From: a virus
Lineage: Duplodnaviria; Heunggongvirae; Uroviricota; Caudoviricetes
Reading direction: 5' to 3' (one strand)
IMG/VR virus record: IMGVR_UViG_2778261424_000010
Span: 1 to 41,171 of that record
Length of the DNA stretch: 41,171 bases
Part shown: piece by piece, positions 4,957 to 33,997 of the stretch
Layout: the number at the start of each line of letters is the position of its first letter
How positions within the stretch are numbered: position 1 is the stretch's first letter
The notes under the pieces: generated by a model
Told to the model about the DNA's origin: nothing
The model's database searches: none
What the model saw: the letters and a program-made list of their open reading frames with translations, nothing else
Translations under genes and position numbers: made by a program

Positions 4957-4978
4957 TAAAAAACCCGCCGGAGCGGGT
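4957..4978 (-). terminator. Rho-independent terminator directly after the 222-aa gene
   Basis: On the minus strand the hairpin ACCCGC-TCCG-GCGGGT (4978-4963) is followed by TTTTTTAT. It begins immediately after the TGA at 4978-4980. Confidence 0.7.
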
Positions 4979-5646
4979 CATTCATTCTTTGGTATGCCGC
5001 AAAGGGCGTTTAGCGTTTCAACGGGAATGGCAAGTGCGGTGCTGGTCGCTTCACGGCGTTCCACCTCAGGCAAATATGGCACTGCCTCAGGCCACATCTC
5101 AGCCAGTTTTTTAACAGTTGAGACTTTGGTTAGAGCACCTTTAACCTGCAATTGGAAGGCATCAACTTCATCGTAAAGAACGTTGATGGTTACCGTCGAT
5201 TCAGTGAGTCGGTCGTGTAATTTTCCAACTTTCTTCAGCGTGCTGTAACTTTCAGGAACGAAACCCGAATCAATTACAGGCGCGAAGGAAGCTCCGAAGA
5301 ACAGGTCGCTTTCAAGATCGTGCTTACCAATATGTTTTCCACGGTGGCGATAGCGATGATCCAAACCGTTCCTGGCTAATTCGTGATACTCACCATTAAT
5401 AATGACCTTTAAAATTGCAGTTTTAGCGCCGACCTTCATCTTGATGAAGGAGTTATCTTTGAAATCTTCCCGAGCCTTAGTTATTTGCTCATCGCTAGTG
5501 TTTTCCTGCTTGAGCAATGCCTGTCGAATTTCTTCAACAATTTTCGCCCTCTCATTAACCGCAGCTTTCGCTTTCTCAAACAATGGGGATGCGAGAAGCA
5601 GGTTATGGCATAGCTGATTTTTAATTTCGTTGTTAAGACGAATCAT
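4978..5646 (-). CDS. Orphan 222-aa protein, first cistron of the PL operon; function unknown
   Basis: Clean ORF with SD AGAGGG upstream of the ATG at 5646. GC content is lower than in the neighbours. Helical N-terminal third, mixed remainder, no TM segment. I cannot assign a family from sequence alone. Confidence 0.8.
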   Translation of the reverse strand: MIRLNNEIKNQLCHNLLLASPLFEKAKAAVNERAKIVEEIRQALLKQENTSDEQITKAREDFKDNSFIKMKVGAKTAILKVIINGEYHELARNGLDHRYRHRGKHIGKHDLESDLFFGASFAPVIDSGFVPESYSTLKKVGKLHDRLTESTVTINVLYDEVDAFQLQVKGALTKVSTVKKLAEMWPEAVPYLPEVERREATSTALAIPVETLNALCGIPKNE

Positions 5647-5692
5647 TGACTTACCCTCTGTCGTTACCCGCTGATGCGGGAGAAATGCTTTG

Positions 5693-5762
5693 TGGTGGAG
5701 TGCTACGGATTCGAACCGAAGTTTTCATGGGTGATCAGTCCATGCAGGCCCAGCCACACCCC
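5693..5762 (-). ncRNA. tRNA-like element (degenerate cloverleaf with encoded CCA) inside the PL leader
   Basis: Minus strand: GGGGUGU GGCUGGGCCUG CAUGG ACUGAUCAC CCAUG AAAAC UUCGG UUCGAAU CCGUA GCACUCC A CCA. It has a 7-bp acceptor stem (two G-U pairs) and a 5-bp anticodon-like stem with a 9-nt loop. The variable region is 5 nt. The T-arm has the canonical UUCGAAU loop and one U-U mismatch. The D-arm is reduced to an 11-nt stretch. Confidence 0.45.
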
Positions 5763-5917
5763 ATTACAAAACATTCCAGTTACGCACCATTGCCGCTCTC
5801 CCTGAGCCCGCCGGGCGTCCGACGCATGGTTTACTGTCGCGCCGTTCGACTGACCGAATCTCCACTTCGCCGCTGGCTAACTTCGCTCAGCTGTCGATGT
5901 TTCGTTTCGATGGGGTA

Positions 5918-5946
5918 AATTTAGCGTGATGCTAAATTATGCGCAA
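5918..5946 (-). promoter_or_regulatory. Candidate PL promoter
   Basis: Minus strand: TTGCGC (5946-5941), a 17-nt spacer, then TAAATT (5923-5918). Operator copies overlap it. It faces the leader and the 222-aa gene. Confidence 0.45.
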
Positions 5947-5994
5947 TAGCAAAATGCTAAATTGTTGAATGGTTTTATTTAGCGTATTGATTAA
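5920..5994. promoter_or_regulatory. OL operator cluster (three 17-bp sites)
   Basis: TTTAGCGTGATGCTAAA (5920-5936, perfect arms), AATAGCAAAATGCTAAA (5945-5961) and TTTAGCGTATTGATTAA (5978-5994). The same TTTAGC-N5-GCTAAA motif occurs at OR. Confidence 0.7.
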
Positions 5995-6077: not shown

Positions 6078-6755
6078 TTATGGGATGTTTAGTATTTTGG
6101 CATCAACCACAACGCCGATGATTTTGCAGTTTCCATTAATTTCTAGCATTGGATATGCGGGGTTAAGGGGCTTTAGGAAGCGTCTGCCGGCATCGATTAC
6201 AAGCTTCTTAAAGGTCGCTTCGTTATCGCCTTCTAGCTTCGCGACAACCAGCTTTCCGTTGCGCGGCTCGACTTCAGGATCAACAAGTATCGCTGCTCCC
6301 TCGGGTATGCTCAGTCCAGCCGGGGAGGTCATAGAATCCCCTTTAACGTCCAGCCAGAATGAATCTTCTGAGCAGTCAACAGTCGTGTCATACCAGCGAT
6401 CTATCGCTCTTCGGTGATAAGGTTCTACAGCTTCCATCCATTGCCCCGCGCTTACCCAGCTGATTACAGGATAACTTCCTTTTGTCTCGTTCAGTCCTCG
6501 AAATGCAACGTTCGAAGGTTCTTCACTGGCGTGTAAAACATCCATCCAGCCAAAAGGCAGATCAAGCGCAGTTTCAATTTTGCGAGCCATCTTATCGCCG
6601 ATATTGCGATGAGGGTTTGGTCCCAGTAGCTGGCTAAGCGCAGCCGGACTTGTCTCGATGAGCTCGGCAAACTGCGCTTTGGTCATTCCAGACTCGTGCT
6701 GACGCTTCTCGTACAGCGCTTCCAGGTTGGCTTTTCTGATTTCTTTATTTTCCAT
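6078..6755 (-). CDS. cI: cI-type prophage repressor (HTH plus S24/LexA-like autopeptidase)
   Basis: 225 aa from the ATG at 6755. The C-terminal half is colinear with lambda cI. It has the candidate Ala-Gly cleavage site in VSAGQW, the Ser nucleophile in KGDSM, and the Lys in ATFKKL. Confidence 0.9.
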   Translation of the reverse strand: MENKEIRKANLEALYEKRQHESGMTKAQFAELIETSPAALSQLLGPNPHRNIGDKMARKIETALDLPFGWMDVLHASEEPSNVAFRGLNETKGSYPVISWVSAGQWMEAVEPYHRRAIDRWYDTTVDCSEDSFWLDVKGDSMTSPAGLSIPEGAAILVDPEVEPRNGKLVVAKLEGDNEATFKKLVIDAGRRFLKPLNPAYPMLEINGNCKIIGVVVDAKILNIP

Positions 6756-6773
6756 ACCTGCATTGTTACTGCT

Positions 6774-6839
6774 TTTAGCAAAATGATAAATGTGCAAATT
6801 GCTAAATGATGCTTGCGTAGTATTTAGCATAACGCTAAA
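6774..6839. promoter_or_regulatory. OR operator cluster
   Basis: TTTAGCAAAATGATAAA (6774-6790), a weaker ATGTGCAAATTGCTAAA (6790-6806) and TTTAGCATAACGCTAAA (6823-6839), all between divergent cI and cro. Confidence 0.7.
6799..6826 (+). promoter_or_regulatory. Candidate PR promoter
   Basis: TTGCTA (6799-6804), a 16-nt spacer, then TATTTA (6821-6826). The -10 hexamer overlaps the operator at 6823-6839. The cro SD GGAGA lies 7 nt before the ATG. Confidence 0.55.
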
Positions 6840-6871
6840 CTCCAAATCAAACGACTCACCCGGAGACACCA

Positions 6872-7105
6872 ATGAGCACTGAACTACACCGCTGGCGCAA
6901 GGCCGCCACTACCGACGAATGGGCGCAGCTCGCAAAGTTGGCTAACACGACGCCAGGTTACCTGGACCAGATCGCCTACGGAAATCGCCGGGCATCTCCA
7001 GAAATGGCATCTGCTATCGAGAAAGGCACGAAGAATTTTCACCGCCAGGCTCCGGTCCTAAAAGAAAGCCTGGTATTCGCATCGCCGCGTGATACTGCGG
7101 CCTAA
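6872..7105 (+). CDS. cro: Cro/YdaS-type small HTH regulator
   Basis: 77 aa, divergent from cI across the operator cluster. The HTH-like segment is WAQLAKLANTTPGYLDQIAYG. Confidence 0.75.
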   Translation: MSTELHRWRKAATTDEWAQLAKLANTTPGYLDQIAYGNRRASPEMASAIEKGTKNFHRQAPVLKESLVFASPRDTAA

Positions 7106-30831: not shown

Positions 30832-33088
30832 CGCAGATACGATTAAAGATTTCCTTGTTTCGCTGGGATTCGATATCGATCAGGCTGGCGCTAATAAGTT
30901 TGAAGCCGTGCTGAAAGGCGTTACAGCTAACGTTCTGAAGGTCGGCGCGGTGGTGGAAGGCGCAGCGCTGAGCATTGTCGGATTTACCACTCAGATCGCG
31001 AACGGTCTGGATAAAATTTACTGGGCATCCCAGCGGACGGGGGCCAGTGTCCAGGGCATCAAAGCGCTGGGATACGCCGCATCGCAAACCGGTGCCAGCG
31101 CCGAGTCGGCTATGTCCTCCCTCGAAGGGCTGGCCGGTTTCATGCGTAGCAATCCGGGCGCGGAAGGCTTCCTGAACCGCCTGGGCGTCCAGACTCGCGA
31201 TGCCAGCGGAAAGATGCGTGATACTGCGGCCATCTTTACTGGCGTTGGGCAAAAGCTCAACAACATGCCGTATTACCGCGCGAAACAATACGCGCAGATG
31301 CTTGGCATCGATGAAAACACGCTGATGGCGATGCGGCGCGGCATGAATGGCTTTACCGCCGATTACCAGTCGATGCTGCAAAAGACAGGGTTCAACGCTG
31401 ATAAAGCGGCTGTTCAGTCCAACAAATTCATGACGTCCATGCGCGGGCTTACGTCGCTGTTCGGCATCATGCGGGACAAGATCGGCTCAAACCTCGCTGG
31501 TGGCCTGGCTGGTTCGCTGGACAGCCTGCGGCGGCGCATCCTCGACAATTTCCCGAAGATTGAAGAGACGCTGACCAGAGTTATTAAAGGCGTGATCTGG
31601 CTTGCGAACGCATTCACGAGAATGGCGTGGCGGCTGATACAGGGCGCTGGCTCTGTCATCGACTGGTGGAAGCGTCTTGACGATGGCAGTAAAAATCTGC
31701 TGAAAATATTCGGTGCTCTACTTGTCGCATGGCGTCTGCTTAATTCTGCGTTCCTGAAATCCCCGATTGGAATTATCACCACGCTGATTCTGGCGATCGG
31801 ATTACTCTATGACGATTATCAGACGTGGAAAGAAGGCGGTAAAAGCCTGATTGACTGGTCCAAGTGGGAGCCTGCAATAGAAAAGGCGAAAAAGGCAATT
31901 CTCTGGCTGCGCGATAAGCTTCTGGGGCTGAAAGATTCTGTTGGTGGATGGCAGAACTCGCTGGAAATTTTGGCTACTTTCATCGCTGGGGTATGGGTAA
32001 CAAAAGTATTGGGAGCATTCGCAAAAATATCCGGTCTTCCGATACCTCCATGGCTTAAATTATGGGGAGCGTATGCTGGTTACCTGGTTTCAGATCGTGA
32101 AAACATAAAAGCCAGTGCTAAATCATCTTTGGACTATACCAAAAGGAACATTGGTGATGCTCTTGCTACGGTTGGCATCAAAACCGACCTTGGGCGAAAA
32201 GATGTTAGCGAGGTAAGAGAATGGCCCGCATGGATGGATTGGCTGCATGGTGGCCCAGGTAAGATTATTCGTCAGGCGCAAAGCAATGGCGTCGTTTATG
32301 GCGATAATGTTCAGCCTGACATTCCCGGGGCGGAACAGCATGTTCGTAGTAATGAAATTGCCCCGCATGAAAGAGATGAAATAAAAAACCGTCAGCAGGC
32401 TGCTAATGGTTATCTTGAAAAAATCTCAGACGGGATTGCCAAAATCGGTAATTTATTTTTCTCCCCGGTTGGAGCTGCTGAAATCTCTCCAAATATATCG
32501 GGTGACCCCTCCCAGTTTGCGCAATCAGTCAAACGTCCACAGGCCACAGCCCAGGGCAAAGTATTGCTCGACTGGATGGGGCCAATGTTCAATAAACTTG
32601 AGTCGCTTTATCAACTTCCAGCTGGTCTATTGAAAAGTGTGGCGATAACCGAGTCAGGTGGTAACCAGTTCGCCATGTCCGGCGCAGGCGCGAAAGGTCT
32701 GTTTCAGTTTATGGATGGTACGGCGCGCGACATGGGCCTTCGCGGAAACGATGTATTCGACCCGCAAAAGTCAGCTCAGGCCGCAGCTAAGTACCTCAGC
32801 CAGCTGTTGCGGCAGAACGGCGGAGACCTTAGCAAAGCACTGGCATCATATAACTGGGGGATCGGGAATGTTAAGCGCTATGGCATGGGGTTAATGCCGC
32901 AGGAAACGCGTAACTACATTCCGAAAGTAATGAGCAACATGCCCACCAGCGCCCCGGTGATTCAGCAGGAAACGAATATTAACATCCACGGCGTTTCCGA
33001 TCCGCGCGAGGCTGCCCGTTTGACTGTTGATCGTCAAAAGGGCGTGAATTCACAGTTAACCCAGCAACTCCCCGCAGGACCGAGATAA
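30821..33088 (+). CDS. Tape measure protein with a C-terminal lytic transglycosylase (SLT) domain
   Basis: 755 aa with central TM-like and helical segments. The SLT signature ITESGGNQ...GLFQFM...AAAKYL...YNWG lies at about nt 32627-32890. Confidence 0.9.
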   Translation: MSGNADTIKDFLVSLGFDIDQAGANKFEAVLKGVTANVLKVGAVVEGAALSIVGFTTQIANGLDKIYWASQRTGASVQGIKALGYAASQTGASAESAMSSLEGLAGFMRSNPGAEGFLNRLGVQTRDASGKMRDTAAIFTGVGQKLNNMPYYRAKQYAQMLGIDENTLMAMRRGMNGFTADYQSMLQKTGFNADKAAVQSNKFMTSMRGLTSLFGIMRDKIGSNLAGGLAGSLDSLRRRILDNFPKIEETLTRVIKGVIWLANAFTRMAWRLIQGAGSVIDWWKRLDDGSKNLLKIFGALLVAWRLLNSAFLKSPIGIITTLILAIGLLYDDYQTWKEGGKSLIDWSKWEPAIEKAKKAILWLRDKLLGLKDSVGGWQNSLEILATFIAGVWVTKVLGAFAKISGLPIPPWLKLWGAYAGYLVSDRENIKASAKSSLDYTKRNIGDALATVGIKTDLGRKDVSEVREWPAWMDWLHGGPGKIIRQAQSNGVVYGDNVQPDIPGAEQHVRSNEIAPHERDEIKNRQQAANGYLEKISDGIAKIGNLFFSPVGAAEISPNISGDPSQFAQSVKRPQATAQGKVLLDWMGPMFNKLESLYQLPAGLLKSVAITESGGNQFAMSGAGAKGLFQFMDGTARDMGLRGNDVFDPQKSAQAAAKYLSQLLRQNGGDLSKALASYNWGIGNVKRYGMGLMPQETRNYIPKVMSNMPTSAPVIQQETNINIHGVSDPREAARLTVDRQKGVNSQLTQQLPAGPR

Positions 33089-33691: not shown

Positions 33692-33997
33692 ATGCAGTTT
33701 AACGAAATACCGCTTTCTCCTGACAATCAGCAGTTCCGCGTTTTGCTGGGCAATACCACGTATACACTCAGGATCATCTGGCGTGATGCGGCTGGCTGGA
33801 TTATGGACGTGATGGATAGCGGCGGTGCTGCGCTTCTTTCTGGCGTACCTCTCCTGACCGGCGTGAACCTATTACGACAATATCCACAGCTTGGCATTGA
33901 TGGCGCGCTGGTGGTGGCGACCGATAAGGGCGCACCAGACGAGCCCACCAAAACCAACCTCGGCACATACAGCCACCTCATTTTCGTACAGGAGTAG
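33692..33997 (+). CDS. Small baseplate/tail protein
   Basis: 101 aa. Called by position. Confidence 0.45.
   Translation: MQFNEIPLSPDNQQFRVLLGNTTYTLRIIWRDAAGWIMDVMDSGGAALLSGVPLLTGVNLLRQYPQLGIDGALVVATDKGAPDEPTKTNLGTYSHLIFVQE

Follow-up and report, generated by a model that had tools for sequence, protein, structure and literature searches.

A 70-nt tRNA-like element lies in the early-left leader of the virus sequence IMGVR_UViG_2778261424_000010, at minus-strand positions 5762..5693 (GGGGUGUGGCUGGGCCUGCAUGGACUGAUCACCCAUGAAAACUUCGGUUCGAAUCCGUAGCACUCCACCA) of the window, that is, of the whole stretch of 41,171 nt analysed here (positions 1 to 41,171 of the IMG/VR record). The order around it is the leftward promoter PL, a predicted put antiterminator RNA, the tRNA-like element, a protein-coding gene and the terminator tL. 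We propose that this element, here called type A, is tRNA-derived and serves as a substrate of RNase P, punctuating or insulating the PL early-left transcript, and we put the probability of this reading at about 55%. That the element is a real, selected and structured RNA is very probable. It belongs to a family of RNAs that has no annotation in GenBank or RefSeq and no Rfam entry, and literature searches by keyword and by literal sequence found no paper describing the element or the family. The kind is already known: it is that of a phage leader-embedded RNase P substrate (M3, C4, CI) or of a tRNA co-transcribed with mRNA.

The element was picked out in a sequence-only reading of the window, which described its shape and did not include the put site just upstream, the copy in phage HK639, the wider family including phi80, or the alanine-type acceptor. 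Among the three roles offered there, a processing signal for RNase P fits the comparative evidence best. A decoy for anticodon nucleases is unsupported, most family members being without an anticodon-arm mimic; the third role, binding of a synthetase, is taken up below.

Diverse RNAs in one slot of the PL leader

The element sits in a slot of fixed position bounded by GGAATGTTTTG on the 5' side and CAAAGCATTTC on the 3' side. A scan that used the junction anchors only, with the insert unconstrained, returned 136 loci (94 viral and 42 metagenomic) with 49 distinct inserts. A handful of these loci are chance matches, as expected given the size of the metagenome collection; the remaining inserts, 62-85 nt long, make up about nine types. 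Nearly all have a closing stem and (G)ACCA, with two or three hairpins forming the core. Seven architectures have the junctions GGAATGTTTTG(TAGT) and CAAAGCATTTCTC in common. We defined the family as inserts of the PL transcript between GGAATGTT(T/A)TG and (C)AAAGCATTTC with a stem whose first pair is G-C and with R-CCA 3' of the stem. The window element falls within this definition, and HK639, phi80, KO-TP1 and Enterobacter phages carry further members.

Covariation was scored on the 7-bp closing stem in 11 distinct stems, including those of phi80 and of locus L023, a distant relative of type A. Paired cells made up 97.4% (a figure somewhat inflated, since the register of the 5' strand was chosen for best pairing), and sliding the 3' partner gave 31-64%. 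Six of the seven pairs showed changes on both sides, and none of 500 shuffles was as good. The first pair is always G-C, and R-CCA always follows the stem. In types A and B, 2 nt more separate the ACCA from the 3' anchor than in other types; the ACCA therefore tracks the stem, not the anchor. Internal helices are maintained as well: those of type E comprise 16 pairs, 100% paired and two of them doubly compensated, and types G1 and G2 differ, by eye, by several compensated pairs.

One type is recognizable as a tRNA. In a local search, type D (L074, 8704-8771) matched the Rfam tRNA model RF00005 at 36.3 bits (gathering threshold 29 bits, E = 1e-6). This match was missed in the gathering-mode scan of whole loci, apparently by filter loss, and that mode gave no match on nine representative loci. 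Type D contains U8-A9, a D-arm, a T-arm and the acceptor GGUGUGG/CCACACC-A-CCA, which is the family's common acceptor. Because type D passes the Rfam tRNA model, the slot family looks tRNA-derived, with cores remodelled to differing degrees. ARAGORN labels type D as tRNA-Ser(tga); its anticodon arm is irregular.

The occupants of the slot combine freely with their surroundings. Put-type and nut-type leaders both occur with each element type, as do many spacings, five or more in all. At least 13 different cargo genes follow type A, and a given cargo can be found behind more than one type. Such free combination with leaders, spacings and cargo is expected of a context-independent processing module, and the element is a free-standing mosaic module. 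The gene behind the cassette is Nmad5 in the window and DUF551 in the prophage of Escherichia coli PEC148; at least 13 different N-termini occur at this place, and all share the untranslated region (UTR) with its hairpin and Shine–Dalgarno (SD) sequence.

Several individual members may be mentioned here. Type B is carried by the Enterobacter phages BHUENT3, BHUENT6 and ENT1. The member in KO-TP1 is longer, with GGAUUGGAUG/CCAUCCAAUC as its stem and GCCA; this insert had also been considered as a 34-aa open reading frame (ORF), which was rejected in favour of the frame of closing stem and GCCA. In one metagenomic locus (L121, JADHEE010000005.1) the leader and 5' strand of type A (TAGTGGGGTG) are fused to a type C core, and this recombinant shows exchange within the conserved GGGGTG stretch.

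Type A itself was found at 31 loci including the window. HK639 carries the same 91 nt at 97.8% identity, unannotated, between genes 45 and 44, with the tRNA-like element at 33694-33763. E. coli PEC148 carries the 91 nt at 100% identity, the only copy in 5426 complete E. coli genomes, and homologues are present in 19 IMG/VR contigs. The element is always downstream of the leader or put core on the same strand, at a distance of 147, 448, 614, 634 or 1642 nt. In an alignment of 12 sequences, put, element and UTR together make up a block of about 255 nt, nine columns of which vary, and the flanks of this block, namely immunity regions and cargo genes, cannot be aligned. Three variable columns fall in the 70 nt of the element, compared with 3/125 and 2/43 in the adjacent put and UTR; conservation of the element is thus not above that of put. 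Private changes include C34A in L004, which breaks a stem pair and causes ARAGORN to fail, and C42U in L012. A 6-nt leader deletion in L006 retains U(-1)/G(+1).

The distant relative L023 (109-185) is a 77-nt element at the edge of an unrelated-looking contig. It keeps a tRNA-Ala-type acceptor, the T-loop and ACCA, has no D-stem and contains one long hairpin (folding-energy z = -2.05). Its T-stem is fully compensated relative to type A (UUCGG/CCGGA to GGGGG/CCCCC), and pair 7 co-varies.

These comparisons bear on whether the element might be a functionless relic, either a decaying tRNA gene or a recombination linker between junctions at which modules are exchanged. The degenerate D-arm and anticodon loop would suit such a relic, as would the T-stem mismatch of the window copy (described below), the stem-breaking change in L004, a substitution density not below that of put and UTR, and the single occurrence among complete E. 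coli genomes. Neutral decay, in contrast, would not keep a compensated closing stem and RCCA through the sequence turnover seen across about nine types and phi80, nor G1 and U(-1) through the leader deletion in L006, and the compensated internal helices and the coupling of ACCA to the stem also speak against it. We consider a relic improbable.

Type A compared with tRNAs

The tRNA-like shape that had been drawn by eye is present at 5762-5693 of the minus strand in every listed feature. The acceptor stem GGGGUGU/GCACUCC has 7 bp, its wobbles being G3.U70 and U7.G66, and is followed by the discriminator A73 and an encoded CCA. The variable region AAAAC and the anticodon-like hairpin CAUGG/CCAUG (loop ACUGAUCAC) could both be confirmed, as could the collapsed D-arm, the D region amounting to a vestigial 11-12 nt. 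The T-arm UUCGG-UUCGAAU-CCGUA was likewise read correctly in the window, but its U-U mismatch is not typical: it results from a G->T change private to the window and the PEC148 prophage, and other copies have CCGGA (U.G).

ARAGORN reported a tRNA-Ile(gat) of 70 nt ending exactly at 5693-5762 of the minus strand. On 100 shuffled versions of the window with dinucleotides preserved (4.1 Mb, both strands searched) it made one call, which corresponds to a chance expectation of about 0.01 calls per window, and the encoded ACCA is an extra coincidence. A tRNA-like fold was also called in HK639 and in 18 of 19 related IMG/VR contigs. Rfam in gathering mode gave no match in the window, and the suggested check against the tRNA model came out negative: RF00005 produced no match at E<=10 with 96 nt of the window or with 101 nt of the HK639 consensus. 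The sole Rfam signal was a partial one of 11.9 bits (gathering score 84), in which the T-arm, the 3' acceptor strand and ACCA aligned with the 3' end of beta_tmRNA. ARAGORN found no transfer-messenger RNA (tmRNA), a class defined by a tRNA-like domain together with pseudoknots and a tag reading frame.

Relative to a canonical tRNA, type A has the 7-bp acceptor, the 5-bp T-stem, the 7-nt T-loop of the form UUCRANY and U33; position 8 is G in place of U8, and position 37 is C in place of a purine. In the ARAGORN drawing the D-stem consists of two Watson–Crick pairs and U.U, and the anticodon stem is closed by A.C. The element is not a canonical tRNA and is non-decoding. The earlier statements that it matches no host tRNA and that an att remnant is unlikely both hold.

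We accordingly regard it as very improbable that type A works as a phage tRNA-Ile(GAU), supplementing translation or replacing a host tRNA cleaved by a defence system. The ARAGORN call with anticodon GAT points that way, and phage tRNAs that counter tRNA-targeting defences are known. The silence of RF00005, consensus copy included, argues against it, as do G8, C37, a D-stem of two to three pairs, and an anticodon arm with either an A.C closing pair or a 9-nt loop. The Prokaryotic Genome Annotation Pipeline (PGAP) annotated no tRNA at the identical PEC148 element, and the acceptor is of the Ala and not the Ile type. Moreover, GAU reads the commonest Ile codons, for which supplementation is unneeded, and the sister elements of the slot have no anticodon arm.

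The acceptor end is identical to that of phage tRNA-Ala(UGC) genes retrieved with the same 3' pattern, with which it shares G1-C72, G2-C71, G3.U70, G4-C69, A73 and CCA. The identity elements of alanyl-tRNA synthetase (AlaRS), G3:U70, A73 and G2:C71, can be read in the sequence, and since the acceptor is of the tRNA-Ala type (G3:U70, A73), charging by AlaRS is predicted rather than by the isoleucyl enzyme, IleRS. The proposal of synthetase binding thus gains a specific candidate for type A; it does not extend to the family, G3:U70 being confined to type A and L023 while the other approximately 100 occupants have U3-A70 or other pairs. A potentially surprising consequence of the tRNA-Ala identity is that type A would be an alanylated RNA.

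The released RNA may then be a functional product, charged by AlaRS and acting in trans as a mimic of tRNA-Ala or of the tRNA-like domain (TLD) of tmRNA, for example by titrating AlaRS, EF-Tu or SmpB, by taking part in non-ribosomal aminoacyl transfer, or by misreading Ile codons. The acceptor end shared with genuine phage tRNA-Ala(UGC) genes favours this. G3:U70 is the major AlaRS identity element, and minihelices containing it are reportedly charged, findings attributed to Hou and Schimmel in 1988 and to Francklyn and Schimmel in 1989. The T-arm, acceptor and ACCA of tmRNA provide the sole Rfam signal, the vestigial D region resembles that of the tmRNA TLD, L023 retains G3:U70 while its T-stem and pair 7 co-vary, and internal helices are conserved in the family. 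Against such a mimic, the restriction of G3:U70 to type A and L023 means that alanine identity is not the family-wide function, ARAGORN detects no tmRNA, and G8, C37 and the collapsed D-arm speak against ribosomal decoding; in addition, the cargo varies, and no associated gene would use such an RNA. We consider a role of this sort unlikely. Slightly less likely, though not negligible, is its broader form, in which type A would be an excised alanine-accepting mimic that acts on translation or ribosome rescue or inserts Ala at Ile codons, and the other cores, in a family including phi80 M3, would be trans-acting too, so that the whole family would consist of small RNAs made early to manipulate the host.

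Two pattern searches related to the acceptor and T-arm led only to unrelated sequences. The exact T-arm/acceptor pattern had one unrelated match in GTDB genomes, resembling the 3' end of an actinobacterial tmRNA, where ARAGORN is silent. The longer-gap pattern GGGGTG...GTTCGAATC...CTCCACCA recovered only an unrelated, tmRNA-TLD-like element of 84 nt. The latter, GGGGTGGATTGGTTTCGA...GAGTTCGAATCTCGGCACTCTCCACCA, occurs in L025-L027 (IMG/VR 3300042286_000072 and relatives; for example L025, 2157-2240); its 5' end is like that of the tmRNA tRNA-like domain, and a short hairpin takes the place of the tmRNA body.

Leader context and proposed cleavage by RNase P

The features of the early-left leader and operon are as follows.

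5915..5960, minus strand: PL promoter/operator region, placed by alignment with the annotated phi80 pL -10 and the start of the common leader, AUCGAAACGAAACAUCGA
5845..5911, minus strand: common 5' leader of the PL transcript, common to nut-type (phi80) and put-type phages
5784..5844, minus strand: predicted put antiterminator RNA with two stem-loops, by homology to HK022 putL and by fold
5764..5790, minus strand: 8-codon mini-ORF MVRNWNVL*, from ATG at 5790 to TAA at 5766-5764
5763..5777, minus strand: conserved 5' junction GGAATGTTTTG followed by TAAT (consensus TAGT), invariant in seven architectures
5693..5762, minus strand: type A tRNA-like element, from ARAGORN, conserved at 70/70 positions in about 30 loci apart from three private changes
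5680..5692, minus strand: CAAAGCAUUUCUC, the 3' junction with the trailer, unchanged from one architecture to another and also found in phi80
5644..5680, minus strand: portable 5' UTR with the hairpin CCCGC-AUCA-GCGGG (5680-5667), the SD GAGGG (5658-5654) and ATG (5646-5644)
4978..5646, minus strand: cargo gene for a 222-aa Nmad5-family protein (Pfam PF18757, E = 1e-30)
4962..4979, minus strand: tL-like intrinsic terminator from a terminator scan, a 7-bp GC-rich stem followed by TTTTAT

The sole traits shared by all slot occupants are a stem resembling an acceptor, with G-C as its first pair, and the R-CCA behind it. A stem starting with G1-C72 and a single-stranded RCCA are exactly what bacterial RNase P requires, and because the common traits of the occupants coincide with these needs, we propose cutting by RNase P. 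Determinants of RNase P cleavage include a 12-bp acceptor/T stack, a T-loop, a single-stranded 3' RCCA and U(-1)/G(+1) (PMC10731613). Type A contains all of them, namely 7+5 bp, UUCGAAU, ACCA and U5763/G5762, where U5763 (T5763 in the DNA) is N(-1) of the element, and should thus be close to an ideal substrate for the host enzyme.

In the mechanism that we propose, host RNase P would cut at U5763|G5762 and thereby detach the downstream message from the put RNA, which stays bound to the polymerase, and from whatever ORFs lie upstream. Further cleavage within the trailer, for which RNase E is the probable enzyme, would yield a stable RNA of about 70 nt. The trailer CAAAGCAUUUCUC is A/U-rich and single-stranded, RNase E recognizes the motif RN|WUU, and GC|AUU in the trailer is a candidate site. 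The cargo mRNA would be left with a short, hairpin-capped and standardised 5' UTR, and the cassette would serve as transcript punctuation, or as an insulator, of a mosaic operon; a physiological benefit of this kind seems plausible from the arrangement. The insulator role is attractive because the cassette, hairpin and SD precede many different genes, which would give each a context-independent 5' end. In the window the element lies 47 nt upstream of the Nmad5 gene, and the UTR CAAAGCATTTCTCCCGCATCAGCGGGTAACGACAGAGGGTAAG is 100% identical to the sequence directly upstream of phi80 gene N.

G1 of the element follows the end of put at a distance of 21 nt. The action of put is independent of a nascent-RNA tether (PMC9378689, citing Sloan 2007). 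Since put works without an RNA tether, a cut 21 nt after it would be compatible with antitermination. A put-modified polymerase would have to read through the terminator at 4979-4962. Processing near antitermination sites has precedents: RNase III reportedly cleaves the lambda N leader beyond nutL, which affects N translation, and HK022 RNA just after putL, findings attributed to Wilson in 2002 and Sloan in 2007. By analogy, the cassette would be an RNase P version of the lambda/HK022 RNase III arrangement, and in phi80 it would stand between nutL and N.

Several observations weigh against the RNase P reading. Pairing between the leader and ACCA acts as an anti-determinant towards RNase P; such pairs could form between A73C74 and the G(-2)U(-1) of the consensus leader, and types C-H have two 5' G able to pair with CC in the CCA. 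The minimum-energy structure of the consensus (CCGGA) is the cloverleaf, but that of the window copy, with its mismatched T-stem, is a non-cloverleaf fold. Folding energies are no better than those of shuffles (z = -0.7 for the consensus and 0.0 for the window copy), an ordinary stability, and these shuffle z-scores are uninformative. The inflated pairing figure of the closing stem is to be counted here too. Finally, the kept internal helices and the very high conservation within types hint at a possible role for the released RNA itself, beyond its being cut.

The put site was delimited by homology. Positions 5844..5784 are 82% identical over 68 nt to HK022 putL, a sequence labelled 'putL: antiterminator RNA' in the annotation of phage O276 and 'putL site' in that of HK75. 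The 5' half of HK639's 'putL-like antiterminator RNA' matches at 51/56 positions. Given this homology, the two stem-loops and the location just downstream of PL, 5844..5784 is predicted to be a complete HK022-type put. An initial assignment of put to 5916-5790 was ruled out by the HK022 putL alignment. No second, putR-like copy was found within three mismatches of the put core. In the HK639 'putL-like' feature (L001 3573-3698, 126 nt), only the 5' half overlaps sequence homologous to HK022 putL; the 3' half extends about 70 nt beyond the homology and overlaps the start of ORF45. The leader of the window phage contains no N-like gene.

The mini-ORF directly upstream of the element, with its SD GGGAGAG (5802-5796), exists as described in the sequence-only reading, but a function as a partner of the element is unsupported. 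GGGAGAG and the ATG at 5790 are nucleotides of put stem-loop II; HK022 putL has GGAUGAA...AAUGCUGC at the corresponding positions, so that the ATG is conserved in put. The mini-ORF occurs only in the 147-nt architecture, in which put abuts the element, and HK639 and three others, that is, four of five architectures, have no start codon there. It is probably a by-product of the juxtaposition of put and element, and not a gene. The idea that a C-terminus 'NWNVL*' mattered for the mini-ORF was rejected on comparison of architectures.

Upstream of put, the 67-nt leader contains about 50 nt at 98-100% identity with phi80, HK225, KO-TP1 and Enterobacter phages. These first approximately 50 nt of the PL transcript, AUCGAAACGAAACAUCGACAGCUGAGCGAAGUUAGCCAGCGGCG, are alike in phages that use N and nut and in those that use put. 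The PL -10 probably lies at about 5924-5919, with transcription starting at about A5911; a strict consensus promoter scan did not call PL.

Related phage RNAs and surrounding genes

phi80 (JX871397) carries an unannotated 124-nt insert (L145 2379-2502, complement(32835..32958)) between nutL and gene N, in the same frame and with the anchor variant GGAATGTTATG. It has the closing stem GAUGUGGU/ACCACAUC and then G-CCA, and behind the insert come the same 3' junction, hairpin and SD. M3 is a small phi80-induced RNA and a natural RNase P substrate that has been grouped with P4 CI and P1/P7 C4 (PMC10731613, PMC5499578, PMC11143913). We hypothesize that the insert in the phi80 slot is M3. M3 and the slot family agree in that M3 is specified by phi80 and cut by RNase P and phi80 carries a slot member. 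M3 differs from type A in that it was described as hairpin-like and without a T-loop, whereas type A has a canonical T-arm and only 70 nt.

P1/P7 C4 and P4 CI are leader RNAs carved out by RNase P beside the immunity region, with an acceptor-like stem and a CCA homologue (PMC5499578, PMC10731613). There is no similarity to them by sequence or covariance model, type A has no cis antisense target, and C4 and CI are without a T-loop. An antisense regulator of the C4/CI type, released by RNase P and pairing through its loops with a phage or host target so that core types represent specificities, would share with them the overall design: a leader beside the immunity region, an acceptor-like stem with a CCA homologue and a variable structured core (PMC5499578). 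That the cores differ between types and are conserved and compensated within them also fits. For no type, however, did the core show consistent complementarity of at least 10 nt to the transcript within -2.5 to +5 kb, complementary 10-mers in the 41-kb window were fewer than for shuffled elements, and no type matched Rfam C4. With types uncoupled from leader and cargo, no linked cis target exists. An antisense role therefore has poor odds.

The RNase III sites of the lambda N leader and of HK022 resemble the cassette in position, downstream of the nut or put RNA and ahead of the first translated gene, and in presumably uncoupling polymerase-bound RNA from the downstream message. They differ in the enzyme, which here would be RNase P, and in the substrate, a long duplex as opposed to a tRNA-like shape; in several architectures there are also ORFs between put and the element.

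With tRNA-Ala, type A shares G1-C72, G2-C71, G3.U70, G4-C69, A73, CCA and the T-arm, and with the tRNA-like domain of tmRNA a reduced D region. A UGC anticodon, a tmRNA body and a tag ORF are all absent, and the element does not pass either of the Rfam models.

Punctuation of transcripts by tRNAs is known from thrU-tufB in E. coli, from ileZ-argN-argO upstream of stx in 933W, from mitochondrial tRNAs, from the mascRNA of MALAT1 and from synthetic tRNA-based insulators. As in the proposed mechanism, a tRNA-shaped unit in a longer, antiterminated transcript is excised by tRNA-processing enzymes and sets the ends of its neighbours. The bacterial and phage examples are decoding tRNAs, whereas type A has degenerated and many occupants of its slot do not have the shape of a tRNA.

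If the RNase P reading is correct, the phi80/HK639/HK022-put lineage carries a modular, tRNA-derived cassette that punctuates the antiterminated early-left transcript and provides swapped-in cargo genes with a standard 5' end, a natural counterpart of the tRNA- and ribozyme-based insulators of synthetic biology. RNase P would then join RNase III as a processor beside nut and put sites, and the orphan M3 RNA of phi80 would gain, after 50 years, a genomic home and a role. With about 130 loci, nine or more structural types and clear covariation, the unannotated group could enter curation as an RNA family in its own right.

As a whole, the window represents a lambdoid phage or prophage with int at 1-1194 and a leftward operon containing YqaJ, RecT and DUF1482 genes. 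A LexA-type cI gene at 6078-6872 is followed by cro, cII and replication genes. The PL operator region (5934-5978, minus strand) gave a weak Rfam match to the AgvB anti-sRNA (anti-small RNA) of 18 bits (E = 0.9, gathering 56), which is probably noise. The virion genes are approximately 98% identical to those of Citrobacter phage Omnitron.

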